A stretch of 64,000 bases of DNA from Gallionella sp. GTDB lineage: Bacteria; Pseudomonadota; Gammaproteobacteria; Burkholderiales; Gallionellaceae. Below the pieces are notes generated by a model that saw only the letters and a list, made by a program, of their open reading frames with translations, was not told the DNA's origin and ran no database searches. Positions 1 to 21,600 of this stretch are shown piece by piece (within the stretch, counting starts at the first letter, position 1; every line of letters starts with the position of its first letter). The stretch is from assembly GCA_035605585.1 (NCBI GenBank), contig DASTGP010000011.1:3834-67833 (forward strand), read 5' to 3'. The position numbers and the translations under genes were made by a program.

Positions 1-1
1 C

Positions 2-1165
2 ATGGTATTGGCGGCTGAGGATCGCGGCCTCCAGCTTGTCGGTCACCTCGAATGCGCTCATCTCCGGTTGCAGGTCGTAAGTGGCGACCTTGGGCGACGG
101 CACCAGGATGCGGTCCTCGCCGGGATAGGGTTGTTCCTTGCCGCCGCTGAAGAAGTAGGTGACGTGTGCGTACTTCTCCGTCTCCGCAATCCGCAGCTGT
201 TTCAAGCCGAGATTGGAAATGTATTCGCCGAAACCGTTATGGATGGATTCCGGGGCGTAGGCGCAGGACAGGTAGTTGAAGTCTTCGCCGTAGCTGCTCA
301 ACGTAACGAAGGCGGCCAGCTTCGGGAAGCGTGCGCGCGCAAAGCCGTTGAAGGTTTCATCCGTCAGGGCGCGGGTGAGTTCGCGTGCGCGGTCGGCGCG
401 GAAGTTCATGAACACCGCCACATCGCCATCCTGCATGCCGGTAGCTGTGATCGCGGTCGGCTTGACGAACTCGTCGGTCTCGCCGCGCGCATAAGCCTGC
501 TCCAGCCCGCTCAAGGCATCGGCAGCGCGGAATTCGGCGCGGCCTTCGGTGAGCAGTTCATATGCGGGTTGCACGCGCTCCCAGCGGTTGTCGCGGTCCA
601 TCGCATAGAAGCGGCCGACGATGCTGGCGATCTGGCCGACGCCGAGCGCATCGCATTTCTGTTGCAACAGTTTCAGCGACTGCATCGCGCTCTTGGGCGG
701 GGTATCGCGCCCGTCGAGGAATGCATGCAGATGCACTTTCTTCAGGCCGTTGCGTGCGGCCATTTCCAGCATGGCGAGGATGTGGTGTTCGTGACTGTGA
801 ACACCGCCTGGCGACAGCAGTCCCATGATGTGCAGGGTGCTGTCGTTTTGTTTGGCCTGGGCGACGGCTGCGCTCAACGCCGGGTTGGTGTAGAAGCTGC
901 CGTCCTCGATGGCCACGTCCACACGGCTGAGTTCCTGATAGATCACACGTCCGGCGCCGATGTTGAGGTGCCCCACCTCGGAGTTGCCCATTTGCTCGGA
1001 AGGCAGGCCGACATGTTTCTCGGAGGCGTCGATCAGGGTGTGGGGGTAATCGCGCCAGAGCGCGTCCCAGTTCGGCTTGCGCGCCGCCAGGATTGCATTG
1101 AAATCGGTATCTTCGCGGTAGCCGAAACCGTCCAGGATCAGCAGTAAGACAGGAGTGACATTCAT
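2..1165 (-). CDS. gpmI: 2,3-bisphosphoglycerate-independent phosphoglycerate mutase (partial, continues off left edge)
   Basis: Manual translation from ATG 1165: [19 protein letters not shown]...[26 protein letters not shown] and GNSEVGH are iPGM motifs. The listed + ORF 2..1147 is its antisense shadow. Confidence 0.95.
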
Positions 1166-1263
1166 TGGATAGAATATAAGCGGATGATGATTTGTGCAGG
1201 CGCGTATTTTAGCCGAATTCGGCTGGTTCCGCGCGCGGCACGCTGGGATAACTGGAGGAAAAC

Positions 1264-1566
1264 ATGGCAGGCAGGCTGATCGATCGGGAAGAGGACATTC
1301 AACAGGCGGCGCAGGCGATGAAGGCGATCGCGCATCCGTTGCGGCTACGGATTTTGTGCGTGCTCGGCGATCAGGAGGTGAGCGTGCAGGACATCGTCGA
1401 GCAGGTCGGCACCTCGCAGAGCAATATCTCGCAGCATCTGGCGATCCTGCGCGAGAAGGGCGTGCTGGCGACCCGCAAGGACGCGAACCGGGTGTACTAC
1501 CGCATCGGCGACCTGCGCACGCTGAAGCTGGTCGGCATGATGCGCGACGTATTCTGCAGCGCGTAG
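1264..1566 (+). CDS. ArsR/SmtB-family repressor with BigR/SqrR/YgaV-like two-Cys pattern
   Basis: HPLRLRILC, w[16 protein letters not shown], Cys32 and C-terminal Cys98 (DVFC); GGAGG RBS upstream. Confidence 0.9.
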
Positions 1567-1569
1567 GTC

Positions 1570-1605
1570 TTGCGCCGCGGCTTAAATATTAGTATATTCT
1601 AATAT
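1570..1605 (+). promoter_or_regulatory. Sigma70-like promoter with an inverted-repeat operator over the -10 box
   Basis: TTGCGC (1570-1575), 17 bp, TATATT (1593-1598); perfect IR ATATTAG-N6-CTAATAT (1586-1605). Confidence 0.65.
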
Positions 1606-1632
1606 GCGAAAATTCCAGATGGAGCAAAGGCC

Positions 1633-2649
1633 GTGAAAAGAACGTGGATCTTGTATTTCCTGCTGATGGGGGCCGCCGCTGTGCAGGCTGCGGGCCAGCC
1701 TGACGTGGCGCCTGCGCAGTACCGCGAGGTGGCGCAGACCTACAGCGCGGACGGTTTGGTGGAGGCGACGCGGCAGTCCACCGTGTCCGCGCAGATCGGC
1801 GGGCGTGTCAAGGAAGTGCTGTTCGATGTTGGCGACCGCGTCGCCAAGGGGCAGGTGATCCTGCGCATCGACGAGCGCGAGGCTGCACAGGCCTTGGCGG
1901 GCAGCCAGGCACAGGTTCTGCAGGCGCAGGCCAATATGCAGAATGCGAAGGCGAACTACGAGCGCGCCAAGCAGCTGTTCGCGCAGAAATTCATCAGCCA
2001 GGCGGGACTGGACAAGGCACAGGCCGATTACAAGGTGGCGCTGGCCCAGGCGGCGGCGAGCGAAGCGGGCGCGGGGCAGGCAAGTTTGGCACACGGCTAT
2101 ACCTCGGTGATCGCTCCTTACGGCGGCGTGGTGGCGGCGCGGCTGGTCGAGGTCGGCGAGATGGTGATGCCGGGCAAGCCGCTGATGACCGGCTTCGATC
2201 CGTCCGAGATGCGCGTGGTCGTGAGCGTGCCGCAATACAAGCTGGCCGATATCGGATCGCATCCCGAAGTGTCGGTGGAGATCCCCTCGTTGAACCGCTG
2301 GATCAAGGCCGCTTCGGTCACGGTGCAACCCATTGCCGACGCGCGCACCCACAGCACCCAGGTGCGCGTGTACCTGCCCGCCAATGAGGCGGGCGTCTAT
2401 CCCGGCATGTTCGTTCGTGCCCATTTCGTCGTGGGAAAAGCGAAGAGACTGACCATTCCGACCAGTGCAGTCTTGCGTCGCAGCGAAGTGGTCGCCGTCT
2501 ACGTGGCGGATGACAAGGGCAATATGAAGCTGCGCCAAGTCCGTTTGGGGGAGGAGAGCGATGGTCTGGTCGAAGTGCTTGCGGGCCTGAAGCCGGGCGA
2601 GCAGGTTGCGCTGGACCCGATCAAGGCCGGCATGGCCGTCAGGAAGTAA
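1633..2649 (+). CDS. RND efflux periplasmic adaptor (membrane fusion protein)
   Basis: Signal peptide, lipoyl-like VSAQIGGRVKEVLFDVGDRVAKGQVIL, coiled-coil hairpin, APYGGVV, YPGMFVRA; GTG start. Confidence 0.93.
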   Translation: MKRTWILYFLLMGAAAVQAAGQPDVAPAQYREVAQTYSADGLVEATRQSTVSAQIGGRVKEVLFDVGDRVAKGQVILRIDEREAAQALAGSQAQVLQAQANMQNAKANYERAKQLFAQKFISQAGLDKAQADYKVALAQAAASEAGAGQASLAHGYTSVIAPYGGVVAARLVEVGEMVMPGKPLMTGFDPSEMRVVVSVPQYKLADIGSHPEVSVEIPSLNRWIKAASVTVQPIADARTHSTQVRVYLPANEAGVYPGMFVRAHFVVGKAKRLTIPTSAVLRRSEVVAVYVADDKGNMKLRQVRLGEESDGLVEVLAGLKPGEQVALDPIKAGMAVRK

Positions 2650-2653
2650 AGCC

Positions 2654-5600
2654 ATGGGTATCTCGGGGCGTATCGCCAAGCTGTTCCTGCATTCGCAGAT
2701 GACGCCGCTGCTGGCGTTGGTTGCGGTGCTGCTGGGTTTGTTCGCCGTGGCCGTGACGCCGCGTGAGGAGGAACCGCAGATCAACGTGACCATGGCGAAT
2801 GTCCTGATCCCGTATCCCGGCGCATCGGCAAAGGACGTTATGCAGACCGTGGCGACGCCCGCCGAGCAGGTGCTGGCGCAGATCGCCGGGGTGGACCATG
2901 TCTACTCGGTGTCTCAGCCCGGCATGGCGGTCATCACGGTACAGTTCAAGGTGGGCGAGGAGCACGTGCCCTCGCTGGTTAAACTGTACGACGTCATCCA
3001 TTCCCATGCCGATTGGTTGCCGCCCACCCTGGGCGTGGCGCCGCCCATCATCAAGGCCAAGGGCATCGACGATGTGCCGGTGGTTGCGCTGACGCTGTGG
3101 CGCGAGCAGGACGCCGGCGGCGGTGTCGAGCTGACCCAGGTGGCGCATTCCATCGAGGCCGAGTTGAAGCGCGTGCCGGGCACGCGCGAAGTGAGCACGC
3201 TGGGGGCGACGCAGCGCATGGTGCGCGTGCTGCTGAATCCGGAAAACCTGAATGCCTACCGGCTGACCATGCAAGATGTGCGCGCCGCTTTGCAATCCGC
3301 GAACGTGTCGCAGAATTCCGGCAATCTGGTGCGGGACAACCGCGAGGTGCTGGTGCAGACCGGCAGTTTCCTGAGCGACGCGAACGAGGTGCGGCAACTG
3401 GTGATCGGCGTGGCCGACGGTAAGCCCGTCTTCCTGCGCGATGTCGCCGAGGTGCAGGATGGCGCCGACCAGCCCGGCAGCTATGTGTGGCTCGGAACAG
3501 GACCTGCCGCGGAAGACAAGCAGATCAAGGCCAAAGGGGAATTCTCCGCCGTGACCGTGGCGATCACCAAAAAGCCGGGCGCGAATGCGGTGGAGATCGC
3601 CGACAGACTGATGGCGCGCGTGGACGAACTCAAGGGCAGCGTGATTCCGGACGACGTGCAGGTCAGTGTGACGCGCAACTACGGCGAGACCGCGAACGAC
3701 AAGGCGATGAAGCTGATCCAGAAGTTGCTGTTTGCGACGGTCGCGGTGGTCGCGCTGGTGTGGTTCACCATGGGGCGGCGCGAGGCACTGGTGGTCGGTA
3801 TCGCGGTACTGCTGACGCTGGCGGCCACGCTGTTCGCCTCCTGGGCCTACGGCTTCACGCTGAACCGCGTGTCGCTGTTCGCGCTGATCTTCTCCATCGG
3901 TATCCTGGTGGACGACGCCATCGTGGTGGTGGAGAACATTCACCGCCGGCGTGCCATGGCCGAGCATCAATCCCTGTCCGAGATCATCCCCGAGGCGGTG
4001 GACGAGGTCGGCAGTCCGACCATACTGGCGACCTTCACCGTCATCGCCGCATTGCTGCCGATGGCGTTCGTCAGCGGCCTGATGGGGCCGTATATGAGCC
4101 CGATCCCGATCAACGCCAGCATGGGTATGCTGATCTCGCTGGCGGTCGCGTTCGTCATCACGCCTTGGCTGGTGTACCGCTTCGCCGGCGCGCAGCATGA
4201 GGCCGTGCACGACGAGCAGAATACTGCGATCAACCGCTTCTTCCGCGATCGGCTCGGCCCGTTCCTGAACGGGGAGCACGGCAAGAACGCGCGCCGCAAG
4301 TTGTGGCTCGGCATCCTCGCCGCGCTGATGCTGGCGGTGTCGCTGGCGGTGGTGAAACTGGTGGTGCTGAAGATGCTGCCGTTCGACAACAAGTCGGAAT
4401 TCCAGGTTGTGGTGGACATGCCCAGCGGCACGGCACTGGAACAGACTAGCGCCGTGCTGCACGACATCGGCGACTACCTCGCGACCGTACCGGAAGTCAC
4501 CGATTACCAGGCCTATGCGGGCACGGCCTCGCCGATTAATTTCAACGGCCTGGTGCGTCAGTACTATCTGCGCAGTGCCGCCGAGCAGGGCGATATCCAG
4601 GTGAACCTGCGCGACAAGCATCATCGCAACCGCAGCAGCCACGAGATCGCCACCGCCGTGCTCGAACCAATCCAGAAGATCGCGAACAACTGGGGCGCGA
4701 AGGTGAAGATCGTCGAAGTGCCACCCGGCCCGCCGGTGATGTCGCCCATCGTCGCCGAGATCTACGGCCCGGATTACGAGGGCGCGCGCCAGGTCGCCGG
4801 CAAGGTGCGCGAACAGTTCGGCAAGACCGAAGGCATCGTCGGTATCGACGATAGTGTTACCGAGTCCGCGCCCAAACTGTTGCTGCACGTGCTGCAGAGC
4901 AAGGCCGCGCTGCTGGGCGTGTCGCCGCACGACATCGTGGATGTGATCGGCGTGGCGCTGGCGGGGCAGGATGTGGCCTCGCTGCACGACGAGAACGCGA
5001 AATATGCGCCGCCGTTGCGCATCGGCCTGCCCGCCGAGAAGCGCAGCCGGATCGACGATGTGCTGAAGCTCAAGGTGCGCGCGCGTGACGGCGTGCTGGT
5101 GCCGCTGTCGGAGGTGGTGCAGGTGGTTCCCGCGCAGCGCGACTACCCGATTTACCACAAGGATCTGCTGCCGGTGGTGTATGTGTTCGGCGATATGGCG
5201 GGCAAGCTGGATAGTCCGCTGTACGGCATGTTCGGCATCAACAGCAAGGTGAGCGGTGCGCCGCTGGCGCAGGGGGGCGAGCTGGAGAGCTATTTCTTCA
5301 AGCAGCCCAGCGACCCCTATGCCGGTTACGCGCTGAAATGGGACGGCGAATGGCAGGTGACCTTCGAGACCTTCCGCGACATGGGCATCGCCTACGGTGT
5401 GGGGCTGATCCTGATCTACCTGCTGGTGGTGGCACAGTTCAAGTCGTACCTCGTGCCGCTCATCATCATGGCGCCCATCCCGCTCACCATCATCGGCGTG
5501 ATGCCGGGACACGCGCTGTTCGGCGCGCAGTTCACCGCGACCTCGATGATCGGCATGATCGCGCTGGCGGGCATCATCGTGCGCAACTCCATCCTGCTGG

Positions 5601-5866
5601 TGGACTTCGTCAATCTGCAACTCAAGGATGGTGTGGATCTGCAGGATGCGGTGATCAACGCGGCCGGGGCGCGCGCCAAACCGATCCTGCTGACGGGGCT
5701 GGCGGCGATGCTGGGCGCGCTGTTCATCCTCGACGACCCGATCTTCAACGGGCTGGCGCTGTCCTTGATATTCGGCATCCTGGTCTCCACCTTGCTGACG
5801 CTGGTAGTGATTCCGGTGCTGTACTACGCCACCCTGTACCGAAAACGAAGTTTCAGTGAAGGCTAA
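2654..5866 (+). CDS. RND efflux permease (AcrB/AcrD/AcrF family)
   Basis: About 1070 aa; TM4 GILVDDAIVVVENI, TM10 IVRNSILLVDF, RAKPILLT. ATG 2654 chosen over the ORF-track start 2606. Confidence 0.95.
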   Translation: MGISGRIAKLFLHSQMTPLLALVAVLLGLFAVAVTPREEEPQINVTMANVLIPYPGASAKDVMQTVATPAEQVLAQIAGVDHVYSVSQPGMAVITVQFKVGEEHVPSLVKLYDVIHSHADWLPPTLGVAPPIIKAKGIDDVPVVALTLWREQDAGGGVELTQVAHSIEAELKRVPGTREVSTLGATQRMVRVLLNPENLNAYRLTMQDVRAALQSANVSQNSGNLVRDNREVLVQTGSFLSDANEVRQLVIGVADGKPVFLRDVAEVQDGADQPGSYVWLGTGPAAEDKQIKAKGEFSAVTVAITKKPGANAVEIADRLMARVDELKGSVIPDDVQVSVTRNYGETANDKAMKLIQKLLFATVAVVALVWFTMGRREALVVGIAVLLTLAATLFASWAYGFTLNRVSLFALIFSIGILVDDAIVVVENIHRRRAMAEHQSLSEIIPEAVDEVGSPTILATFTVIAALLPMAFVSGLMGPYMSPIPINASMGMLISLAVAFVITPWLVYRFAGAQHEAVHDEQNTAINRFFRDRLGPFLNGEHGKNARRKLWLGILAALMLAVSLAVVKLVVLKMLPFDNKSEFQVVVDMPSGTALEQTSAVLHDIGDYLATVPEVTDYQAYAGTASPINFNGLVRQYYLRSAAEQGDIQVNLRDKHHRNRSSHEIATAVLEPIQKIANNWGAKVKIVEVPPGPPVMSPIVAEIYGPDYEGARQVAGKVREQFGKTEGIVGIDDSVTESAPKLLLHVLQSKAALLGVSPHDIVDVIGVALAGQDVASLHDENAKYAPPLRIGLPAEKRSRIDDVLKLKVRARDGVLVPLSEVVQVVPAQRDYPIYHKDLLPVVYVFGDMAGKLDSPLYGMFGINSKVSGAPLAQGGELESYFFKQPSDPYAGYALKWDGEWQVTFETFRDMGIAYGVGLILIYLLVVAQFKSYLVPLIIMAPIPLTIIGVMPGHALFGAQFTATSMIGMIALAGIIVRNSILLVDFVNLQLKDGVDLQDAVINAAGARAKPILLTGLAAMLGALFILDDPIFNGLALSLIFGILVSTLLTLVVIPVLYYATLYRKRSFSEG

Positions 5867-5931
5867 CCTTCAGGTTATGCCGTAACTAAAATTCCGGTAA
5901 AATTCGCGGCTAATTTTTTAGGAGAGTCACT

Positions 5932-6144
5932 ATGACTGCTGAACGCATCGTCCGTATCGTTGCCGGGTTCTTTGTCCTGTTGTCCCTGTCCCTGGGTGTG
6001 GAAGGTAGCCCGCTGTTCGTGAACCAGAACTTCCTGTGGTTCACCGCCTTTGTCGGCGTCAACCTGTTCCAGAGCGGTTTCACCACCTTCTGCCCACTGA
6101 ACAACATTCTCGCAAAATTCGGCATCAAGAGCGGTTCTTGCTAA
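5932..6144 (+). CDS. DUF2892/YgaP-like small membrane protein
   Basis: ERIVRIVAG...two TM segments...GFTTFCPLN; AGGAG RBS. Confidence 0.85.
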   Translation: MTAERIVRIVAGFFVLLSLSLGVEGSPLFVNQNFLWFTAFVGVNLFQSGFTTFCPLNNILAKFGIKSGSC

Positions 6145-7919
6145 AGACCTTTCCGGGCTCGCTGCGCTTGGCCCACATCAGCCTGGCCTTGGCCGGGGTG
6201 ATGTGGGTCTTGCCTTTTCTGCACTATCGCCACCAATACCCGCTGACCACCTTCTATCAGGAGTGGTGGAGCGCACTACTCGGTGTGCTGGCGCTTACCC
6301 TGCTGGCGGCGCGCGATTACTGGCAACAACCGCAAGTGCCGCGCATCGCGCAGCTGCCGGTCGCGCTGATCGTCCTGGCGCTGCTACAGTCGGCACTGGG
6401 CAAGGTGGCCTATTTCGATCAGGCGCTGCTGTATGTGTTGTACCTGCTGTTCGCGTCGATGCTGATGCTGCTCGGGGCACGGCTGCGCGAATGTTTCGGC
6501 ATGGATCGGTTGGCACTGGTGCTGGCGATCTGTCTGCTGGTCGGCGCGGAAGCGAGTGCGCTGATCGGTGTGCTGCAGCATTTTCGTTGGCATACACCGC
6601 TGGATGCCGTTGTGGTGGTGAAGGTCTCAGCAGGCGTGTACGGCAACGTCGCGCAGCCCAACCATTTTGCCAATTACATCGCGCTGGGCCTGGTCTCGCT
6701 CGGTCTGTTGCTCCGGCAAAATCGCTTGAAGGTGCGCTATGTGGTGTTACTGGCGCTGCCGTTGTTGTTTGTGATGTCGTTGAGCGGGTCGCGCAGCTCC
6801 TGGCTGTACCTACTGTTCATGAGCGGTCTCGCGTGGTGGTGGGCGCGGCGCGATGCCGCCCAACGACCGCTGTTGCACTACAGTCTGTTGCTGTTGGCGG
6901 GTTTCGGCCTGATGCACGGGGTGGTGCAGCTGCCGTTCATGGCCGGGGCGGGCAACAGCATCGACACCATGCAGCGCCTGTTGGGGCCGGACGTTTCCGG
7001 CGGAATCCGCCTGTATCTGTGGCGCGAGGCAGGGTTGATGTTCAGCCAGTCGCCGTGGCTGGGCGTGGGTTTCGGTCAGTTTGCCTGGCACCATTTCCAA
7101 CTGGTGCCGGTGCTGCAGCCGGGCAATATCCAGGGGCTGTACAACAATGCCCATAACCTGGTGTTCCAGCTGGCGGCAGAGACGGGACTTGCTGGGCTGC
7201 TGGCGCTTTTTGTTTCGCTGGGTGTCTGGCTGTACGGCTTGCGTCGGGCGCCGCTCGATGCCGCCCACTGGTGGGGATGCGCGGCGCTGGGCGTGCTGGG
7301 CATCCACAGCCTGCTCGAATATCCGTTGTGGTATGCCTATTTCCTCGCGGTCGCAGCGCTCTTGCTGGGAGCGCTGGACCAGACGCACTATCAACTGGAA
7401 CTGCGCCGTATGGGGCGCTTGTCCGTGGCAGCGGTCATCTTGCTCGGCCTGGCGACGCTGGCGCAGCTGCTCATCAGCTACCAGCAACTGGAGCAGACGT
7501 TGCGGATACGCCCGGCCTCGGCTGCCGACCGCGGCTCATTCGAACGTACGCGCGACGGCCTTGCTGCGGTGCAGGGAGGCTCGTTGCTGTCGCCCTATGC
7601 AGAGCTGTTCATGAGTTCGCTGATCGAGGTGAGCGACGAGCGCCTCAAGGAGAAGCTGGAGCTGAACACGCGAGTGATGCGTTTCGTGCCGATCGGCATG
7701 GTGGTATATCGCCAATCCTTGCTGCTGGCGCTGGCCGGCCGGCAGGATCAGGCCCGGATCACGCTGGAACAGGCCATCTGGTCGTATCCGGGAGATTTTG
7801 CCAATGCGCGCAAGCAATTGGCGGAGCTGGCGGAGAAGGACCCCGCGCACTTTTCGGCTCTGCTAGAATTCGCCCTCCAAAAAGATCAGGAGTACAGGCG
7901 TGCAGTTCATCAGCAATAA
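6138..7919 (+). CDS. PglL-like O-oligosaccharyltransferase (Wzy_C / O-antigen ligase family)
   Basis: Multi-TM; GNVAQPNHFANY, SGSRSSWL, YNNAHNLVFQLAAETG, IHSLLEYPLWYAYFL. Start uncertain (TTG 6138 assumed). Confidence 0.85.
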   Translation: MLKTFPGSLRLAHISLALAGVMWVLPFLHYRHQYPLTTFYQEWWSALLGVLALTLLAARDYWQQPQVPRIAQLPVALIVLALLQSALGKVAYFDQALLYVLYLLFASMLMLLGARLRECFGMDRLALVLAICLLVGAEASALIGVLQHFRWHTPLDAVVVVKVSAGVYGNVAQPNHFANYIALGLVSLGLLLRQNRLKVRYVVLLALPLLFVMSLSGSRSSWLYLLFMSGLAWWWARRDAAQRPLLHYSLLLLAGFGLMHGVVQLPFMAGAGNSIDTMQRLLGPDVSGGIRLYLWREAGLMFSQSPWLGVGFGQFAWHHFQLVPVLQPGNIQGLYNNAHNLVFQLAAETGLAGLLALFVSLGVWLYGLRRAPLDAAHWWGCAALGVLGIHSLLEYPLWYAYFLAVAALLLGALDQTHYQLELRRMGRLSVAAVILLGLATLAQLLISYQQLEQTLRIRPASAADRGSFERTRDGLAAVQGGSLLSPYAELFMSSLIEVSDERLKEKLELNTRVMRFVPIGMVVYRQSLLLALAGRQDQARITLEQAIWSYPGDFANARKQLAELAEKDPAHFSALLEFALQKDQEYRRAVHQQ

Positions 7920-8310
7920 CATTTTCCCCATTCTCATCGCTTTGTTCAGCGGGGCCATGCTGTTCTGGTCGATGTTCGGCAACCGCATCCGCGGCATCAA
8001 GGACGTGGATTGCGTCGCGGCCACGCAGTTCATCAATCACAAGAATGCGCTGGTGCTGGATGTGCGCGAAGAAAACGAATACAAGGCCGGCCATATCCTG
8101 AACAGCAAGCTCATCCCGCTGGGCAAATTGGCCGAGCGTGTCGGCGAACTGAAAAAATACAAGGATCAGCCCATCGTGGTGGTGTGCCGCAGCGGCAACC
8201 GCTCCGGTACCGCTTGCGCCCTGCTGGGCAAGCAGGGATTCACCCAGGCCTACAATCTGGCGGGCGGCGTGATCGCCTGGCAAAAAGCCAATCTGCCGCT
8301 GGAGAAGTGA
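7900..8310 (+). CDS. Membrane-anchored rhodanese-like sulfurtransferase (YibN position)
   Basis: N-terminal TM, LDVREENEYKAGHI, active loop CRSGNRS, LAGGVIAW. Confidence 0.9.
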   Translation: MQFISNNIFPILIALFSGAMLFWSMFGNRIRGIKDVDCVAATQFINHKNALVLDVREENEYKAGHILNSKLIPLGKLAERVGELKKYKDQPIVVVCRSGNRSGTACALLGKQGFTQAYNLAGGVIAWQKANLPLEK

Positions 8311-8567
8311 TGGCGAAAGTCGTGATGTATTGCACGGCCGTCTGTCCCTACTGCGTTCGTGCCGAGCAGCTGTTGCAGCGCAAGGGCGTGACGGAGATCG
8401 AAAAGATCCGCGTCGACCTGCAGCCGGAATTGCGCGTGGAGATGATGGAGAAAACCGGGCGTCGCACGGTGCCGCAAATCTATATCGCCGGCGAACATGT
8501 CGGGGGCTATGACGACATGGTCGCGCTCGATCAGGCGGGCAAGCTGAACGAATTGTTGGCAAGATAA
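8310..8567 (+). CDS. grxC: Glutaredoxin 3
   Basis: MAKVVMYCTAVCPYC...RRTVPQIYI...GGYDD; ATG overlaps the upstream stop. Confidence 0.95.
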   Translation: MAKVVMYCTAVCPYCVRAEQLLQRKGVTEIEKIRVDLQPELRVEMMEKTGRRTVPQIYIAGEHVGGYDDMVALDQAGKLNELLAR

Positions 8568-8591
8568 CGAATAATCAACCGAGGAAACGAC

Positions 8592-9059
8592 ATGACTGAA
8601 GCCGCACAAGCAAACAATCAACCCGTGTTCAACATGGAAAAGATCTATGTGAAGGACATCTCGCTGGAGATTCCTCATGCACCGCAGATCTTCCTCGAGC
8701 GCGAGAATCCGCAGATCGATGTCCAGTTGCACAGCCAGGCTGCCTCGGTCGAAGACGGCGTATTCGAAGTGGCCGTGATGTCCACCGTGACTGCCAAGAT
8801 CGGCGACAAGGTGATGTTCCTGATCGAGGCCAAGCAGGCCGGCATCTTTCAGGTGCGCAACGTACCGAACGAAGAACTGGAACCCATCCTTGCGGTCATG
8901 TGCCCGAACATCCTGTTCCCGTATTTGCGTGAAGTGGTTTCCGATATCGCGGTGCGTGCCGGTTTTGCGCCGGTGTTGCTGAACCCGATCAACTTCGACG
9001 TCCTCTACCAGCAGCAGAAACAGCAGCAGGCACAGGCCGCCGGCGCGACTACTCATTGA
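8592..9059 (+). CDS. secB: Protein-export chaperone SecB
   Basis: IYVKDISLEIPHAPQIF, QAGIF, CPNILFPYLRE; grxC-secB-gpsA synteny. Confidence 0.97.
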   Translation: MTEAAQANNQPVFNMEKIYVKDISLEIPHAPQIFLERENPQIDVQLHSQAASVEDGVFEVAVMSTVTAKIGDKVMFLIEAKQAGIFQVRNVPNEELEPILAVMCPNILFPYLREVVSDIAVRAGFAPVLLNPINFDVLYQQQKQQQAQAAGATTH

Positions 9060-9508
9060 TGATGAGCCTGCCGCTGCGTCTGGTTGCATTGTCGGCGCTG
9101 CTCTTTGGCGCCAGCGCGGCCTGCGCGGTGGATTATGTGTCGGTCGGCGAGAGCAGCGCGATACTCTACGATGCGCCTTCGCTCAAGGCGAAAAAGCTGT
9201 TCGTGGTGAACCGCTACATGCCTTTCGAGCAAGTCGTCACACTGGACAACTGGGTCAAGGTACGCGACCGCTCCGGCGGTCTGTACTGGGTCGAAAAGCG
9301 TGTGCTGAGCAGCAAGCGCTACGTGTTTGCGCTGCCGCCGCTGCTAGACGTGCGCGCGGAACCGGATTCCGGTTCGCCGCGCCTGTTCCAGGTGCGCCAG
9401 CAAGTGGTGCTGGAACGTCTCGAGTCGACCGGCACCGGATGGGTCAAGGTGCGGCACCAGGACGGCGAGGTGGGATATGTGCGCAGCACCGAAGTCTGGG
9501 GCGAATAG
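9059..9508 (+). CDS. Secreted tandem SH3-domain protein
   Basis: Signal peptide then two SH3b-like repeats (WVKVRDRSG; WVKVRHQDGEVGYV). Confidence 0.85.
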   Translation: MMSLPLRLVALSALLFGASAACAVDYVSVGESSAILYDAPSLKAKKLFVVNRYMPFEQVVTLDNWVKVRDRSGGLYWVEKRVLSSKRYVFALPPLLDVRAEPDSGSPRLFQVRQQVVLERLESTGTGWVKVRHQDGEVGYVRSTEVWGE

Positions 9509-9510
9509 TG

Positions 9511-9726
9511 GGCACCTCGAGAAACCTACTGCGTGGTACTCGAATGGGTATGTGGCTTCGACATAACCTGAAGGTTAGTCTTCGCCGAAACTCGCAAAGC
9601 TCGTTTTCTCGTCGCTCCGTTGACCAGCGACTTGGCTGGCGTTCTTTGCCAGCCTTAGTCGAATGGCCATGCAAGGCTCCGTGCGCCTTGCACTCGAACC
9701 GCTCGCTACGGTTTTTCGAGGTGCGC
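9511..9726. repeat. MITE-like element with terminal inverted repeats
   Basis: GCACCTCGAGAAACC (9512-9526) versus GGTTTTTCGAGGTGC (9710-9724), 14/15 complementary; subterminal sequence shared with 59897-60018. Confidence 0.7.
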
Positions 9727-9748
9727 TAGTGTCAGCGGGTCTTTTATT

Positions 9749-10747
9749 ATGAATATCACCGTTATCGGCGCGGGCGCATGGGGAACCGCACTCGCGATCA
9801 GTCTGGCCGCGAACCATCGCGTCACGCTGTGGGCTCGCGCTGCCGAGCAGGTCGAGGCGATGCGCGCCGCGCGTCGCAACCAGCGCTACTTGCCGGATAC
9901 TCCATTTCCTCCCAACCTCGCGCTGAGCGCGAACCTGTCCGCTGCATTGGCAGTCGCCGATCTGGCGATCATCGCCGTGCCGACCGCCGCGTTGCGCACC
10001 ATCCTGCAACAGATCGCCGGGATGCCCAACCGCTTCGGCGTGGTGTGGCTATGCAAGGGGTTCGAGGCGGAGAGCTCCAAGCTGCCGCATCAGGTGGTCG
10101 CCGAAGTGTTGCCGGCAGAATTCCGCTATGGCGTGCTGTCCGGCCCCAGCTTCGCCCAGGAAGTCGCGCGCGGGTTGCCCACCGCATTGACGCTTGCTTC
10201 CGGCGATGCGGAGTTCGCGCGCGATACGGCACAGGCGCTCCACCATGCGCGTTTGCGCATCTACGCCAGCACCGATGTGGTGGGGGTGGAAGTCGGCGGG
10301 GCAGTGAAGAACGTGATGGCGATCGCCGCCGGTATCTGCGACGGCATGGGGTTCGGCTATAACGCACGTGCGGCCTTGTTGACGCGCGGCCTGGCCGAGA
10401 TCACCCGACTCGGTCTGAAGCTCGGCGGGCGGCCTGAGACGCTCTCCGGATTGTCCGGTGCGGGCGATCTGATCCTGACCTGCACCGGGGACTTGTCGCG
10501 CAACCGGCAGGTCGGCCTGCTGCTGGCACAGCAGCACGATCTGGCGGAGATTCTGCATCGGTTGGGGCATGTCGCAGAAGGCGTCTATACCGTGCGTGAA
10601 GTGCACAGCCTCGCGCAACGTCTGGGCGTGGCGATGCCGATCTCCGACGCGGTCTACCGCATCATCTACGAGAAGGTTCCGGCGCGCGAAGTGGTGGCCG
10701 ACCTGCTCAGTCGCACACCGAACTACGAGTTCGACCTCAACCAGTAA
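9749..10747 (+). CDS. gpsA: NAD(P)H-dependent glycerol-3-phosphate dehydrogenase
   Basis: [44 protein letters not shown]. Confidence 0.97.
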
Positions 10748-11207
10748 CCGCGCCTTCGAAGCCGCATTGCCGCCACGCCTCGAATACCGTCACCGCTACG
10801 GCGTTGGACAGGTTCAGGCTGCGGTTGTCCGGCAGCATCGGCAGCCGCACGCGTTGTGCGGCATCGAATTGCGCCAGCACTTCCGCGGGAAGGCCGCGGC
10901 TCTCCGGCCCGAACAAGAATGCGTCCCCGGCTTGATAGCGGACTTGATGGAATGGCCGGGAGCCCTTGGTGGTGAAAGCGAAGACGCGCGCCGGATCGAA
11001 AGCCGTCAGGCATTCCTTCAGTGTGTCGTGCACACGCAACGTGGCGAATTCGTGGTAATCCAGGCCGGCGCGAATGAGCTGCTTGTCTTCCAGCGTAAAG
11101 CCGAGCGGCCTGACCAGATGCAACTGGCAGCCGGTGTTGGCGCACAGGCGGATGATGTTGCCGGTGTTGGGCGGAATTTCCGGCTGATACAGAATGACGT
11201 GGAACAT
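10737..11207 (-). CDS. trmL: tRNA (cytidine/uridine-34 2'-O)-methyltransferase
   Basis: [38 protein letters not shown]. Confidence 0.96.
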
Positions 11208-11227
11208 GAAAAAGTGCCCGTTAAGGC

Positions 11228-11256
11228 TTGTCAGTGTAAGAAAAAAGGGCTAACTT
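11228..11256 (+). promoter_or_regulatory. Candidate sigma70 promoter of mshE
   Basis: TTGTCA-17 bp-TAACTT. Confidence 0.5.
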
Positions 11257-11304
11257 CACCGGCTGTTATGGCCTCGTTGCAGTAAAACCACTCAGGGAAG
11301 AATT

Positions 11305-13008
11305 ATGGCGCGTCCGGAAAAAGTTCGCTTAGGCGATTTGCTGGTTCAGCAAAAACTTATTTCCCTCGATCAGCTCAAGTTTGCGCTGGAGCAGCAGAAG
11401 CGCAGCGGACGCAAGCTCGGCCGGGTGCTGGTGGACAACGCCTTCGTTACCGAGGAGCAGATCTCCGAGGCGCTCGCCAAGCAGCTCAACATTCCCTACA
11501 TCAACCTCAAGTACTACAACCTCAATCTCGAGCAGGTCCGGTTGCTGCCGGAGAACCAGGCGCGACGTTTTCGCGCCGTCGTGCTGGAGGAACGCAACGG
11601 CATGTTGCTCATCGGCATGGCCGATCCCACCGATCTGTTCGCCTTCGACGAGATCAGCCGCATCGTCAAGCGCGACATCGATGTCGCGGTGGTCACCGAG
11701 GGACAGTTGCTGGAAAGCATCGACCGCGGCTACCGGCGCACCGACGAGATCTCCGGTCTGGCGCGCGAACTCAGCGAAGAGCTGGGCGATACCTATGTCG
11801 ATTTCGGCACCCTGACCGGGGCGGTCGGCGCCGAAGAGGCGCCCGTGGTCAAGCTGCTGCAGACCATGTTCGACGATGCGACGCAGATCCGCGCATCCGA
11901 CATCCATATCGAGCCGCAGGAAGGCAGGCTGATGATCCGCTTCCGTATCGACGGCGCGCTGCACCTGCAAACCGAAGCCGACAACAAGATCGCGCCGGCG
12001 CTGGTGCTGCGCCTGAAGCTGATGTCCGGCCTGGATATCTCGGAGAAGCGACTGCCGCAGGACGGCCGCTTCCAGGTGCGGGTGCGCGATCAGGGCGTGG
12101 ACGTGCGTATCGCCACTTGCCCGACGCAATACGGCGAGTCGGTGGTGATGCGTCTGCTGCGGCAGGAAGGCGGGATGATCAGCCTGGACAAGATCGGCAT
12201 GCCGCCGGAGATGCTGAAGCGCTTCCGCGAGGTCATCAGGCGCAGCAACGGCATGGTGCTGGTCACCGGGCCGACCGGCAGCGGCAAGACCACCACGCTG
12301 TACTCGGCCCTGGCCGAGATCAACACCATCGACCAGAAGATCATCACCGTGGAAGACCCGGTTGAATACCGCCTGGCCGGTGTCAATCAGGTGCAGGTGA
12401 ATGAGAAGATCGACCTGTCCTTTTCGCGCGTGCTGCGTTCCGCCTTGCGCCAGGACCCGGACGTGATCCTGGTCGGCGAAATGCGCGACGTCGAGACGGC
12501 GCAGATCGGCCTGCGCGCCGCGATGACCGGACACCTGGTGTTTTCCACCCTGCACACGCGCGATGCCGCGGGTACCCTGTTTCGCCTGGTGGACATGGGG
12601 ACGCCGCGCTTCATGGTGGCATCCTCGGTGCAGGCAGTGATCGCGCAACGCCTGTTGCGCCGCATCTGCGAGAGCTGCAGCGAGCCGCATATACCCACGC
12701 CGCAGGAAAGCGAGTGGCTGGAGGCCGAGGGCGTGTTGCCCGACCAGTGCCATGGCCTCCTGCATGGGCGTGGGTGCTCGCACTGCAACGGCACCGGCTA
12801 TCACGGGCGCATGGGCGTATACGAGATGCTGGAGATGGGGCGCGAGCTGGTCGAGGCCGCCGCGCATGACAGCTCTACCCATTTCATCCAGGTCGCGCGC
12901 CAGCACATGCGCGGCAAAACCATACTCGACCACGCATTGGCTCAGATGAAGCTGGGGCATACCACAGTCGCCGAAGTGATGCGCATCAGCAACCAGGTCG
13001 AGGATTAA
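11305..13008 (+). CDS. mshE: MSHA-type pilus assembly ATPase (GspE/PilB family, N-terminal MshEN domain)
   Basis: RLGDLL...QQ tandem motif, Walker A GPTGSGKTT, LRQDPDVILVGEMRD, Zn-binding CxxC pairs. Confidence 0.92.
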   Translation: MARPEKVRLGDLLVQQKLISLDQLKFALEQQKRSGRKLGRVLVDNAFVTEEQISEALAKQLNIPYINLKYYNLNLEQVRLLPENQARRFRAVVLEERNGMLLIGMADPTDLFAFDEISRIVKRDIDVAVVTEGQLLESIDRGYRRTDEISGLARELSEELGDTYVDFGTLTGAVGAEEAPVVKLLQTMFDDATQIRASDIHIEPQEGRLMIRFRIDGALHLQTEADNKIAPALVLRLKLMSGLDISEKRLPQDGRFQVRVRDQGVDVRIATCPTQYGESVVMRLLRQEGGMISLDKIGMPPEMLKRFREVIRRSNGMVLVTGPTGSGKTTTLYSALAEINTIDQKIITVEDPVEYRLAGVNQVQVNEKIDLSFSRVLRSALRQDPDVILVGEMRDVETAQIGLRAAMTGHLVFSTLHTRDAAGTLFRLVDMGTPRFMVASSVQAVIAQRLLRRICESCSEPHIPTPQESEWLEAEGVLPDQCHGLLHGRGCSHCNGTGYHGRMGVYEMLEMGRELVEAAAHDSSTHFIQVARQHMRGKTILDHALAQMKLGHTTVAEVMRISNQVED

Positions 13009-18602: not shown

Positions 18603-21600
18603 ATGCGGAAAAATCTTTTGATCAAATCGGGAATGCTGGCCGCTTTAATGTTGCTGCCATTGAATGCGGCGCTGGCAGCGACCTGCACCAGCCTGAGCGC
18701 GGGCAACTGGAATGCAGCCGGGCGCTGGTCTTGCGGACATATCCCGGTTGCGGCCGATACGGTGGTGATCGCGCACAACAATGTCAGGCTGACCAATAAT
18801 TACACGGTAGCGGGGCTGACCATCAATGCCGGTGCAGTGCTGGACGACAACGGCAACGATCTCTCCGTGACCGGTAGCGTGGTCAACAACGGCACTTTCG
18901 GCGTTAACGGCGGGGGCGGCAGGCTGTTGATGACGGGAGCCGGGAGTACGATATCCGGCGCTGGCACGTTTGCCGATTCGCGTCTCTACATCGATGCCGC
19001 CAACATCACGCTGCCGGCCGGTTCGAGCATGAACTTCACCAATGGCGCGCAGATCCGCGTCGGCAGCAACACGGCAGGTTCGTTCACCATTGCAGGTACC
19101 GTTACCGATACCGGTATTACGGCGGGAAACCGTATTTTGCGCGTTTATAACGCCTCTACCCTGACGATCAGCGGGACGTTCAATACACCTGCGTCCTATG
19201 CACAGATCCGTTCCGGCGGGACGGTGATTAACAACGGTACGGTCAATTTGCGATACCTCGATGGCAACGGCGCGGCAACGGCAACCTGGACACAGGGTGC
19301 GAGTTCCAACGTCACGTTTACCCAGCCTGCGGTTTCCTGGGCTGGGTCATTCAACGCCTCGGCTACCGGCAATACGGTTACCTATAATTCGCCTGCGACG
19401 CCGATCACGCCGACCACCAATACCTACTACAACCTGGGCGGAACCGGCGTGACCTGCCCGCATACTTTCATCGTGCTGGGATCGAATCCGTGTACCGCCC
19501 CGCCGGGTTCCGGTTTTGTGGTATCGAGCCCATCTACATGCAGCAGCGTGACCGGGGTCGGAACAATCCCCTGGCAGTTCCCGCAGAATGCGACGGCAAG
19601 CGACAATGTGTATGCCACGGCCCTGATGCTGCCAAACAGCACTTCCAACTATCTGAACTGCACCGGCTTCAACTTCAGCGCCATTCCCGCCGGCTCGACC
19701 ATCAGCGGGATCACCGTCAGCATCGAGCGCAAGGCCAGCAGCAATCGCAGGGCAAGGGATGCGTTCGTGTACCTGATCAAGGGAGGGATGATCGGCACTG
19801 CCTTCAACGGCGCGACGGCGACCCAATACACTACGGCCGATGTCGTGGCGGCGCATGGCGGCATGACCAGCCTGTGGGGGACGACCTGGACGGACACGGA
19901 CGTGAAGGCGGCCAATTTCGGTGTGGCTTATGCGGTGACTTCGACCAGGTTACTAACCGTGAGCGTCGATCACATCCAGGTTCGGGTGGATTACAGCTTT
20001 CCTGTCGCTGTAACGCCTTCGGATTTCAATATCTATGACACATCCACGTCACCTGCGAACAAGATCGACGGCGTCATTGGAACCAAGATCGCCGGGCAGC
20101 CTTTCACGCTGGACATTGCAGCATTGAATACGGCGGGCAATGCATTATTGACGTCCTTTACAGGGACGGTGAAAGTGGAGCTACTGGACGCCAGCGACAA
20201 CACCGGGGCGTTGATCAACGGTTGCCGTTCTACGTGGACGACGCTCCAGACTTTGGCCAACAACCAGACTTTTGCGGCAGGGGATGCGGGAATTACCGGT
20301 TCGGCGGGCAGGCACCGTATTACGCCCGCAATTACGGTGGGCAACGCTTACAAGGATGTGCGCGTGCGGGTGAGTTATCCGGCGACGGGGACGCCGACCA
20401 AGGTCGGATGTTCCACCGACAACTTCGCCATTCGCCCCGCCAGCCTCTCCGCGGTTTCGGTGAGCGATGCCGATTGGCAGACAACCGGTACGGCGCGTAA
20501 TCTGACCAATACCGCCGCGACGGGCGGGGTTGTACATAAGGCCGGGCAGCTGTTCACCATCGTGGCAACCGCCTACAACGCCGCGGCGACACCGGTAGTC
20601 ACGACCGGCTATGACGGCAGTCCGGTGGCGGTTGTGAACACGACCTTGCCTGTCGGCGGGGTCGATGGGGCGCTGACTTTCACCAACCCGACATGGGCGG
20701 TCAATGCGGGAACGGTGACCAACACGACTGCGCAATACGATGAAGTCGGCGTTTTCGACATGACGCTGGAAGACCATACCTTCGCTGCCGTCGATAGCGG
20801 CGACGGGACGGCGGCTTCGTGCGCGGGTTACTACGTCTGTTCGGCGGCGGTCGCGGTCGGGCGTTTCGTGCCGGATCACTTTGAACTGGTGGATGCGTCG
20901 GCCGATCCCGTGCTGGACCCGCTGGTCAACACTGCGGTCGATGCATGGTTGCCGACTACGGCGCATCAGTTCCGCACCTTCGATGCGACCGATGCTTCCT
21001 GCAATGCCGCGGCTGCAGCGCCCCAACGCTCCTTTACATACATCGGGCAGCCTTTCGGCTATGTCACTCCGCCCCAGGCCACGGTCAAGGCGATGGACGC
21101 TGTGGGCGGTGCGATCCAGAACTATGACCCCAACAAGTTTGACCCACTTACTCCTCCACTCGATGTGGCGGTGACTCAGGTTTACAGCGCGGCGGGCAGT
21201 GCATTGGATACCGGGCTGGCCATGCAACCGGCAATGCTCGCACCGAATGCCAATTATGCGGCGGGAACTAGTCCCATCGTCGGAACCGTGACGTTGAATA
21301 GCGCCGACAAACTGGCGTTTGTTCGCACTGTGCCGGTGGCGCCCTTCAATGCCAATATCACCCTGGCGCTTGATGTGAAGGATGCCAGCGAGAGTGGGGT
21401 GGCGGGCAATGGCATCATCATGGCCGATACACCTCTCATCTTCGCATCCATCCCATTCGATTCGGGCAACCAGATGCGTTTCGGCCAGATCAAGATGTCC
21501 AATGCGTATGGTTCGGAGCGGCTCGATTTGCAAGTTCCCCTGATGACGCAGCATTTCAACGGCGCGGGGTTCGTCACCAACACGGCGGATCACTGTACCA

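Follow-up and report, generated by a model that had tools for sequence, protein, structure and literature searches.

Two published studies bear on the locus considered here. In Azospira suillum PS, the operon Dsui_3443-3440, which encodes a membrane fusion protein (MFP), a sulfide:quinone oxidoreductase (SQR), a resistance-nodulation-division (RND) permease and a hypothetical protein, ranks with the genes that H2S induces most strongly and also stood out in Bar-seq, and a separate DUF2892 gene of the same organism is induced about 10-fold (PMC5358917); a 2025 survey from the Dahl laboratory, for its part, lists RND pumps among the neighbours of two-cysteine ArsR repressors and colours them on its tree (PMC12423496). 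The pairing of sensor and pump has been noticed in print but left unexplained, the partnership with DUF2892 and the substrate not being addressed there, and stand-alone DUF2892 proteins are essentially unstudied in the literature outside these two papers. The view taken in an earlier note on the present DNA, that nothing of the kind was known, was too strong in the light of the H2S-induced operon (PMC5358917) and of the ArsR-RND pairing (PMC12423496). Here we analyse a 64-kb stretch of DNA from Gallionella sp. (hereafter the window, in whose positions all coordinates are given), of which the region 1-11200 was annotated for gene content, and we find in it an RND module that lacks SQR but is otherwise typical of its kind, one that is widespread and so far uncharacterised.

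The functional unit runs from 1264 to 6144 and comprises an ArsR repressor, an MFP, an RND permease and a DUF2892 protein, whereas the genes for a PglL-type protein, a rhodanese and the glutaredoxin GrxC that follow are context. Its genes and regulatory elements are:

1264-1566, + strand: ArsR/SmtB-family repressor of 100 aa (Pfam HTH_5, NCBIfam HTH_metalloreg)
1570..1598, + strand: predicted sigma-70-like promoter of the pump genes, with -35 TTGCGC, a 17-nt spacer and -10 TATATT
1586..1605: operator-like perfect palindrome ATATTAG-TATATT-CTAATAT, its arms flanking the -10 box, in the gap that separates the arsR and MFP genes
1633-2649, + strand: RND periplasmic adaptor (MFP) of 338 aa with a signal peptide (TIGR01730 RND_mfp, Pfam HlyD_D23)
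2654-5866, + strand: RND permease of 1070 aa (ACR_tran), the ATG at 2654 being the conserved start
5932-6144, + strand: DUF2892/YgaP-like_TM protein of 70 aa (PF11127, E=7e-15, 55.3 bits)

We consider it reasonably likely that this module is derepressed by reactive sulfur species and clears a product of sulfide stress. The case is built on gene content, the alignment of cysteines, a conserved palindrome, cross-genome linkage and synteny, and from these we infer the inducer, the role of the DUF2892 protein and the substrate. Comparisons across genomes draw on a survey of one genome per species, comprising 80 loci (the L numbers below are locus labels) whose RND proteins are 57-86% identical to that of the window; the loci were annotated by tblastn, clustering of open reading frames (ORFs) and Pfam and PDB look-ups of cluster representatives, and a FastTree phylogeny divides the pumps into a betaproteobacterial subclade (54 rows, including the window) and a gammaproteobacterial subclade (25 rows).

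The repressor contains exactly two cysteines, C32 (in RILC) and C98 (in DVFC). Its ArsR fold is apparent from matches to HTH_5 (E=6e-13) and NF033788 (87.5 bits against a cut-off of 55), and it aligns from end to end with BigR (3pqj, E=1.5e-18), HlyU, YgaV (3cuo) and SqrR (6o8l), with C32 and C98 in register with the sensing cysteines of BigR (C42/C108) and SqrR (C41/C107) and likewise with those of HlyU and YgaV; the earlier assignment of this protein to the BigR/SqrR/YgaV two-cysteine type thus holds over its full length. The pair is retained in all co-oriented ArsR orthologues, and the positions of the classical metal sites (CXC in alpha3; His, Asp or Glu in alpha5) offer no Cys or His ligands in the sequence. 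Taken together, these alignments support the protein as a candidate sensor of reactive sulfur species of the BigR/SqrR/YgaV/HlyU type.

The palindrome over the pump promoter is the sole match in the 64-kb window when 2 mismatches are allowed, but such uniqueness is weak by itself, at least one match being found in 19/100 shuffles; the palindrome counts as a signal because it is conserved at the same place in 20-odd loci. Its core, ATTAG-N6-CTAAT, precedes the MFP gene at over 20 loci, which range from Gallionellaceae to a metagenome-assembled genome (MAG) of the Chromatiales, the carriers being Gallionellaceae together with L017, L025, L026, L029, L070 (Chromatiales), L102 and L108. The intergenic lengths extend from 85 to 277 bp, yet the position of the motif is constant. 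The arrangement of TTG, 17 nt and TATATT also recurs in relatives, although a consensus promoter and terminator scan, which returned nothing above shuffles, missed the weak -35 box of the pump (3/6 match). A terminator prediction over the locus called none, and an Rfam scan of positions 1-12000 gave zero RNA families.

A weaker site is found on the other side of the repressor gene:

1174..1193: ATATAAG-N6-ATGATTT, a weak and degenerate operator-like site between the divergent gpmI and arsR genes, in their promoter region

A search that allowed 2 mismatches did not recover it; degenerate sites are likewise present upstream of arsR in L022, L023 and L027, and autoregulation of arsR is, tentatively, possible. 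A perfect 14-bp palindrome, AGCCGAATTCGGCT, occupies positions 1211-1224, 40 bp before the arsR start, and is only partly conserved among relatives (TTTTAGCCGAATT in L023). Elsewhere, the Hydrogenophilales MAG at L029 carries a second good operator-like site, ATATTAGTACTTTCTTATAT, at 20884-20905, about 120 bp upstream of a divergent gene for a PAS-domain methyl-accepting chemotaxis protein, a hint that a chemoreceptor may belong to the ArsR regulon. The Gallionella MAG at L021, whose SQR gene stands between those for MFP and RND, keeps an operator-like site at 7130-7150; since neither arsR nor gpmI occurs within 10 kb upstream, its regulator gene is either elsewhere or lost.

The DUF2892 protein has two predicted transmembrane (TM) helices, with C54 in FCPL and a C-terminal C70 that the earlier note had not mentioned. 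Of the 39 neighbour DUF2892 proteins that were aligned, at least 90% share Cys54, and they usually carry a Cys at or near the C-terminus as well; Cys54 aligns with the TM2 cysteine of E. coli YgaP (GFCGM), in keeping with a YgaP-like TM domain; the N-terminal rhodanese fusion of YgaP is absent, the 70 aa amounting to no more than the TM domain. The positive-inside rule would place Cys54 at the cytoplasmic end of TM2. In Dechloromonas aromatica RCB the DUF2892 gene overlaps the RND stop by 4 nt, and a 4-nt overlap is frequent among loci of the betaproteobacterial subclade, where distances between genes are approximate, ORF starts in the survey being first-start calls. The DUF2892 protein is probably a small partner of the pump, to judge from gene arrangement.

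As for the pump itself, the adaptor exceeds the cut-off of TIGR01730 RND_mfp (220.6 bits) and is in part similar to adaptors of the CzcB/CusB type (TIGR00999 156.7 bits; matches to Pfam BSH_CzcB and CzcB_C). The permease, 96% identical to its counterpart in Ferrigenium kumadai, matches ACR_tran over its full length (PF00873, 516.8 bits, residues 11-1058) and has the features of an RND permease in TM4 (VDDAIVVVEN at 419, with its Asp pair) and TM10 (IVRNSILLVDF at 975, with R-N). It nonetheless falls under every NCBIfam subfamily cut-off, be it that of the multidrug models for hydrophobe/amphiphile efflux (HAE-1; TIGR00915, 306 bits for a cut-off of 940; NF033617, 449 bits for 1250) or that of the heavy metal efflux (HME) model (TIGR00914, 268 bits for 701). 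In the PDB it comes closest to HAE-1 pumps (about 232 bits), and its identity to such pumps is about 25-28%; these scores point to a distinct, divergent clade of HAE type. V, F and N stand opposite the Met triad of CusA (M573, M623, M672), and most of the relay methionines are lacking. There are 0 Cys in the 1070 aa of the permease, a composition that would be compatible with exposure to reactive sulfur but proves nothing. At least 90% of 81 members of the RND clade agree at 17 Met/His positions. In the region surveyed around the locus there is no gene for an outer-membrane factor (OMF). In L018, from a closed genome of the same genus (G008), the RND gene at 1501-4691 is split into overlapping frames covering residues 1-692 and 689-1065, and is probably either a frameshifted pseudogene or the result of a sequencing error.

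Linkage of ArsR, RND and DUF2892 genes across genomes, to which the earlier note had tied the fate of its proposal, was found in the betaproteobacterial subclade, where it extends to SQR. The MFP gene precedes the RND gene in 73/81 loci, many of the remainder lying at contig ends, and the order ArsR-MFP-RND-DUF2892 recurs in many genomes; within one draw of the genus, a pump orthologue at 82% identity or more is present in 14/24 genomes. Counting only loci with enough flank, the neighbours of the pump are distributed as follows:

DUF2892 protein: betaproteobacterial subclade 36/46, gammaproteobacterial subclade 0/20
ArsR: betaproteobacterial 22/42, gammaproteobacterial 0/12
CstR-like regulator of the CsoR family, with two Cys only: betaproteobacterial 7/42, gammaproteobacterial 0/12
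SQR: betaproteobacterial 11/42, gammaproteobacterial 0/12
thioredoxin 2: betaproteobacterial 8/42, gammaproteobacterial 0/12
TolC-like OMF: betaproteobacterial 7/42, gammaproteobacterial 0/12
LysR: betaproteobacterial 1/42, gammaproteobacterial 4/12

The neighbouring SQR is of type I, scoring 637 bits against the enzyme of A. ferrooxidans and 379 against that of Aquifex, and sits between the MFP and RND genes in L021, L042, L050 and L108, the last of these being a Gallionellaceae contig with the order ArsR-MFP-SQR-RND-DUF2892-PglL-Rhod-Grx-SecB and an RND protein 86% identical to that of the window. A more remote RND clade, at 41% identity, has neither ArsR nor DUF2892 in the two members examined.

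The ArsR proteins of the survey are of two kinds, about half with the BigR-like Cys pair and half of a divergent type. The latter has no alpha2 Cys and carries a conserved C-x3-C (ALCDLVCG) in its last helix; it is encoded divergently upstream of the pump, mostly in Comamonadaceae-like genomes (L052, L059, L062, L065, L066, L069, L078, L080 and L085, and further L089, L093, L094 and L099), and may represent a different thiol-based sensor for the same pump. CstR-like regulators, which belong to the CsoR/RcnR family and have two Cys and no metal-site His, adjoin DUF2892 and the pump in L037, L079, L080, L092-L096 and L100, and constitute a third, unrelated family recruited to the pump module.

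The surroundings of the module are best read against those of the same genes in E. coli. The remaining genes of the region are:

2-1165, minus strand: gpmI, divergent and upstream of arsR
approximately 6138-7919, + strand: PglL/O-antigen-ligase-type membrane protein of about 592 aa (Pfam PglL_A, Wzy_C, Wzy_C_2)
7900-8310, + strand: membrane-anchored single-domain rhodanese with an N-terminal TM segment (Pfam Rhodanese)
8310-8567, + strand: glutaredoxin 3 (GrxC) with CPYC (TIGR02181, 112 bits, above the cut-off)
8592-9059: SecB
9056-9508: SH3-domain protein
9749-10747: GpsA
beyond gpsA, minus strand: trmL

All genes from arsR to grxC lie on the + strand with small gaps or overlaps, and the genes and motifs that the earlier note had named (C32/C98, FCPL, CRSGNRS, CPYC) are present and co-oriented as it described; what it overlooked is the PglL-type gene, which overlaps both the DUF2892 and the rhodanese genes, so that these two are not contiguous. 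The layout is identical in Ferrigenium kumadai An22, PglL gene included, according to independent gene calls. Among other relatives the PglL gene is variable, being missing in L008, L027 and L029 and reduced to a remnant in L006. In the window it lies 3.4 kb upstream of a block encoding MshE, T2SSF and prepilin proteins, and its product may glycosylate those pilins.

The annotated order in E. coli K-12 is trmL, then cysE-gpsA-secB-grxC-yibN, opposite gpmM-envC. The window matches this frame even in its flanks, which carry trmL at one end and, past gpmI, an M23 peptidase at the other, and the arrangement of yibN-grxC-secB-gpsA opposite gpmM/gpmI is found both here and in Ferrigenium kumadai. 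Over 139 aa, TM segment included, the rhodanese shows 37% identity to YibN of E. coli (E=1e-25), and it retains the catalytic Cys (in CRSGNRS) where E. coli YibN aligns an Asp; yibN itself reportedly shares an operon with grxC, secB and gpsA, and its product reportedly binds the insertase YidC (PMC11997395). On a pump-less Gallionellaceae contig (L110), a 78%-identical rhodanese followed by grxC stands directly after the mla operon. Conversely, of the 80 pump loci, only those of Gallionellaceae and of a few betaproteobacteria allied to them have the rhodanese-Grx cluster next to the pump, and the ArsR-MFP-RND-DUF2892 genes with the variable PglL gene therefore appear to be an accessory insertion between gpmI and yibN. 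By the same comparison, rhodanese and GrxC are housekeeping yibN-grxC neighbours rather than defining parts of the module. The idea of a split ygaVP-like unit accordingly survives in part: the ArsR is YgaV-like and the DUF2892 protein resembles the YgaP TM domain, but the rhodanese and GrxC belong, by synteny and 37% identity, to the YibN cluster. A split-YgaP origin of the rhodanese was rejected on the strength of the E. coli synteny, the similarity to YibN and the pump-less relative. The rhodanese and GrxC genes may still be co-transcribed with the pump, since the overlaps of DUF2892 with PglL, of PglL with the rhodanese and of the rhodanese with Grx, together with the lack of a predicted terminator, would permit read-through from the pump promoter.

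The proposed mechanism can be outlined as follows. A dimer of ArsR would bind ATTAG-N6-CTAAT across the -10 box before the adaptor gene and keep the pump repressed; persulfides or polysulfides derived from sulfide would then bridge Cys32 and Cys98, as they do in SqrR and BigR, whereupon the repressor would leave the DNA and the pump would be made. The latter would consist of a proton-driven, HAE-type RND permease with its adaptor, the 70-aa DUF2892 partner and an outer-membrane channel encoded elsewhere, and it would remove a product of sulfide stress from the inner membrane or the periplasm. Type I SQRs act at the periplasmic face, and RND pumps capture their substrates from the periplasm or the outer leaflet. 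The leading candidate substrate would be hydrophobic zero-valent sulfur or polysulfide, the kind of product of a type I SQR, because these enzymes make such products at the membrane and are repeatedly embedded in the operon; export of zero-valent sulfur is, on these grounds, plausible but unproven. A bolder version would see in MFP-RND-DUF2892 the first dedicated exporter of zero-valent sulfur, with the Cys-bearing DUF2892 hairpin as a sulfur-relay subunit. The hairpin would accept sulfane sulfur from carriers in the cytoplasm or the membrane, perhaps including the adjacent membrane rhodanese, or else it would mark the site at which SQR-made polysulfide enters the Cys-free RND permease, and the pump would expel the sulfur through an outer-membrane channel. 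This version strikes us as rather unlikely.

Other accounts of the locus must be weighed against derepression by reactive sulfur. One would treat the whole of 1264-8567 as a single sulfur-trafficking operon, a split YgaVP in which the rhodanese and GrxC load or reduce the sulfane sulfur that DUF2892 passes to the pump. The co-orientation of all the genes, with overlaps and no predicted terminator, fits such an operon, as do the catalytic Cys that this rhodanese keeps, unlike E. coli YibN, the fusion of a rhodanese to the same TM domain in YgaP, and a placement that is the same across Gallionellaceae and a Hydrogenophilales MAG (in which Trx2 stands between Grx and SecB). We regard it as distinctly improbable nonetheless, since E. 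coli has the Rhod-GrxC-SecB-GpsA order opposite gpmM with no pump there, the rhodanese is YibN-like down to its TM anchor, in a relative within the Gallionellaceae Rhod-Grx follows the mla operon and there is no pump, the pump module is far from the cluster in most of the 80 loci, and a variable 1.8-kb PglL gene intervenes. Another account would make the locus a metal or metalloid resistance unit, in which ArsR senses a thiophilic metal and the pump exports metals, as ions or as metal-sulfide complexes; metal sensing is the classical role of the ArsR/SmtB family, the adaptor is partly similar to CzcB/CusB, the host is an iron oxidiser, and metal sulfides were what the authors of the Azospira study suggested (PMC5358917). 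Neither the repressor nor the permease bears it out, however: the former lacks the alpha3 CXC and alpha5 ligands and has as its only cysteines the BigR-type pair, the latter scores low against the HME model, has an HAE-type TM4 and shows V, F and N at the CusA methionines, and the neighbours at other loci are SQR, Trx2 and CstR-like genes, not metal genes. We have rejected the metal pump on the absent ArsR ligands, the HME score, TM4 and the missing CusA triad, and hold the wider account to be highly unlikely.

It is also conceivable, though again we find it quite improbable, that the locus provides general stress or xenobiotic efflux under a thiol-oxidation sensor of oxidants or electrophiles, with DUF2892 as an incidental neighbour. 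This would suit the nearest solved structures, which are multidrug HAE-1 pumps, the redox genes (OsmC, AhpD-like, Bcp) near some relatives, and the C-x3-C ArsR type and LysR regulators that accompany other members of the clade. Work from the Giedroc and Masuda laboratories, on the other hand, has reportedly found SqrR and BigR to be selective for persulfide over peroxide, which we count against it. The same holds for an RND protein that lies below all multidrug-family cut-offs, for an adjacency of DUF2892 (36/46) that is often translationally coupled and that we judge to be far beyond chance, for the repeated insertion of SQR inside the operon, and for the H2S induction of a published operon of the same gene order (PMC5358917).

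Several observations also weigh against our own proposal of a pump derepressed by reactive sulfur. The repressor falls short of the BigR equivalog (NF040642, 78.9 bits for a cut-off of 155), on account of which we take it to be a subfamily-level relative and not a BigR orthologue. HlyU-type relatives, moreover, control other things. The candidate operator does not match a box of the SqrR type, the SqrR operator being ATTC-N8-GAAT; there is no SQR in the 64-kb window by tblastn; and the gammaproteobacterial subclade, though rich in sulfur oxidisers (Thiohalophilus, Thioalkalivibrio, Allochromatium, Thiothrix and others), is without DUF2892 (0/20) or these regulators. The tight coupling of DUF2892, PglL, rhodanese and Grx may, in addition, leave room for functional co-expression. 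As to Azospira, deletion of the operon left the rate of H2S oxidation unchanged, and its authors favoured export of metal sulfides (PMC5358917). The connection of that operon to the present RND clade is one of gene order only, and the best 120 homologues of the L042 RND protein come only from Dechloromonas, Ferribacterium and Azonexus relatives, with none from Azospira.

A module of this kind matters for the question of how bacteria clear hydrophobic zero-valent sulfur and polysulfides from their membranes and periplasm. We know of no RND pump with a demonstrated sulfur substrate, and a pump clade found in many genera beside SQR and beside two or three unrelated types of regulator (two-Cys ArsR, C-x3-C ArsR and CstR-like CsoR) is a concrete and testable candidate, whose DUF2892 partner with its invariant Cys gives an unstudied protein family a likely job. 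Should the pump indeed export sulfur, this would explain how many proteobacteria dispose of sulfide-derived sulfur or deposit it extracellularly. For iron oxidisers in particular, a defence against sulfide and polysulfide would be ecologically sensible, because biogenic Fe(III) oxides and sulfide would yield zero-valent sulfur and polysulfides near the cell. At the level of annotation, the rhodanese and glutaredoxin should be corrected to housekeeping yibN-grxC, and the accessory element to ArsR-MFP-RND-DUF2892 with a variable PglL gene.

In comparison with the known systems, the Azospira operon Dsui_3443-3440 shares its gene order with L021 and L108, in which SQR lies between MFP and RND, whereas the window lacks SQR and carries an ArsR gene ahead of the MFP. 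The repressors SqrR of Rhodobacter capsulatus, BigR of Xylella and Acinetobacter, YgaV of E. coli and HlyU of Vibrio share with the ArsR of the window the fold, the length, both cysteines and the lack of metal ligands; like them, the ArsR of the window is predicted to repress adjacent genes through a palindrome that covers their promoter, but its predicted target is an RND pump and not sqr, pdo or blh. The likeness to ygaVP of E. coli resides in an ArsR 35% identical to YgaV with the Cys pair aligned, in a DUF2892 protein 33% identical to the TM domain of YgaP with the TM2 Cys aligned, and in their location in one co-oriented unit; the DUF2892 protein of the window is, however, stand-alone and coupled to an RND pump, and the nearby rhodanese corresponds to YibN. 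With the HAE-1 system AcrAB-AcrZ the pump has in common a full-length ACR_tran domain, the DD of TM4, the R-N of TM10, a cognate adaptor and a small membrane protein encoded alongside, although this partner, whose association with the pump we infer, is a DUF2892 protein with two helices and Cys residues that has no relation to AcrZ. Finally, the window shares with the yibN-grxC-secB-gpsA cluster of E. coli, opposite gpmM-envC, its order, its orientation and the TM segment of the rhodanese, and differs from it in the 5-6.7 kb (ArsR, pump, DUF2892 and PglL) that lie between gpmI and the rhodanese, in the SH3 gene between secB and gpsA, and in a rhodanese that has its catalytic Cys.

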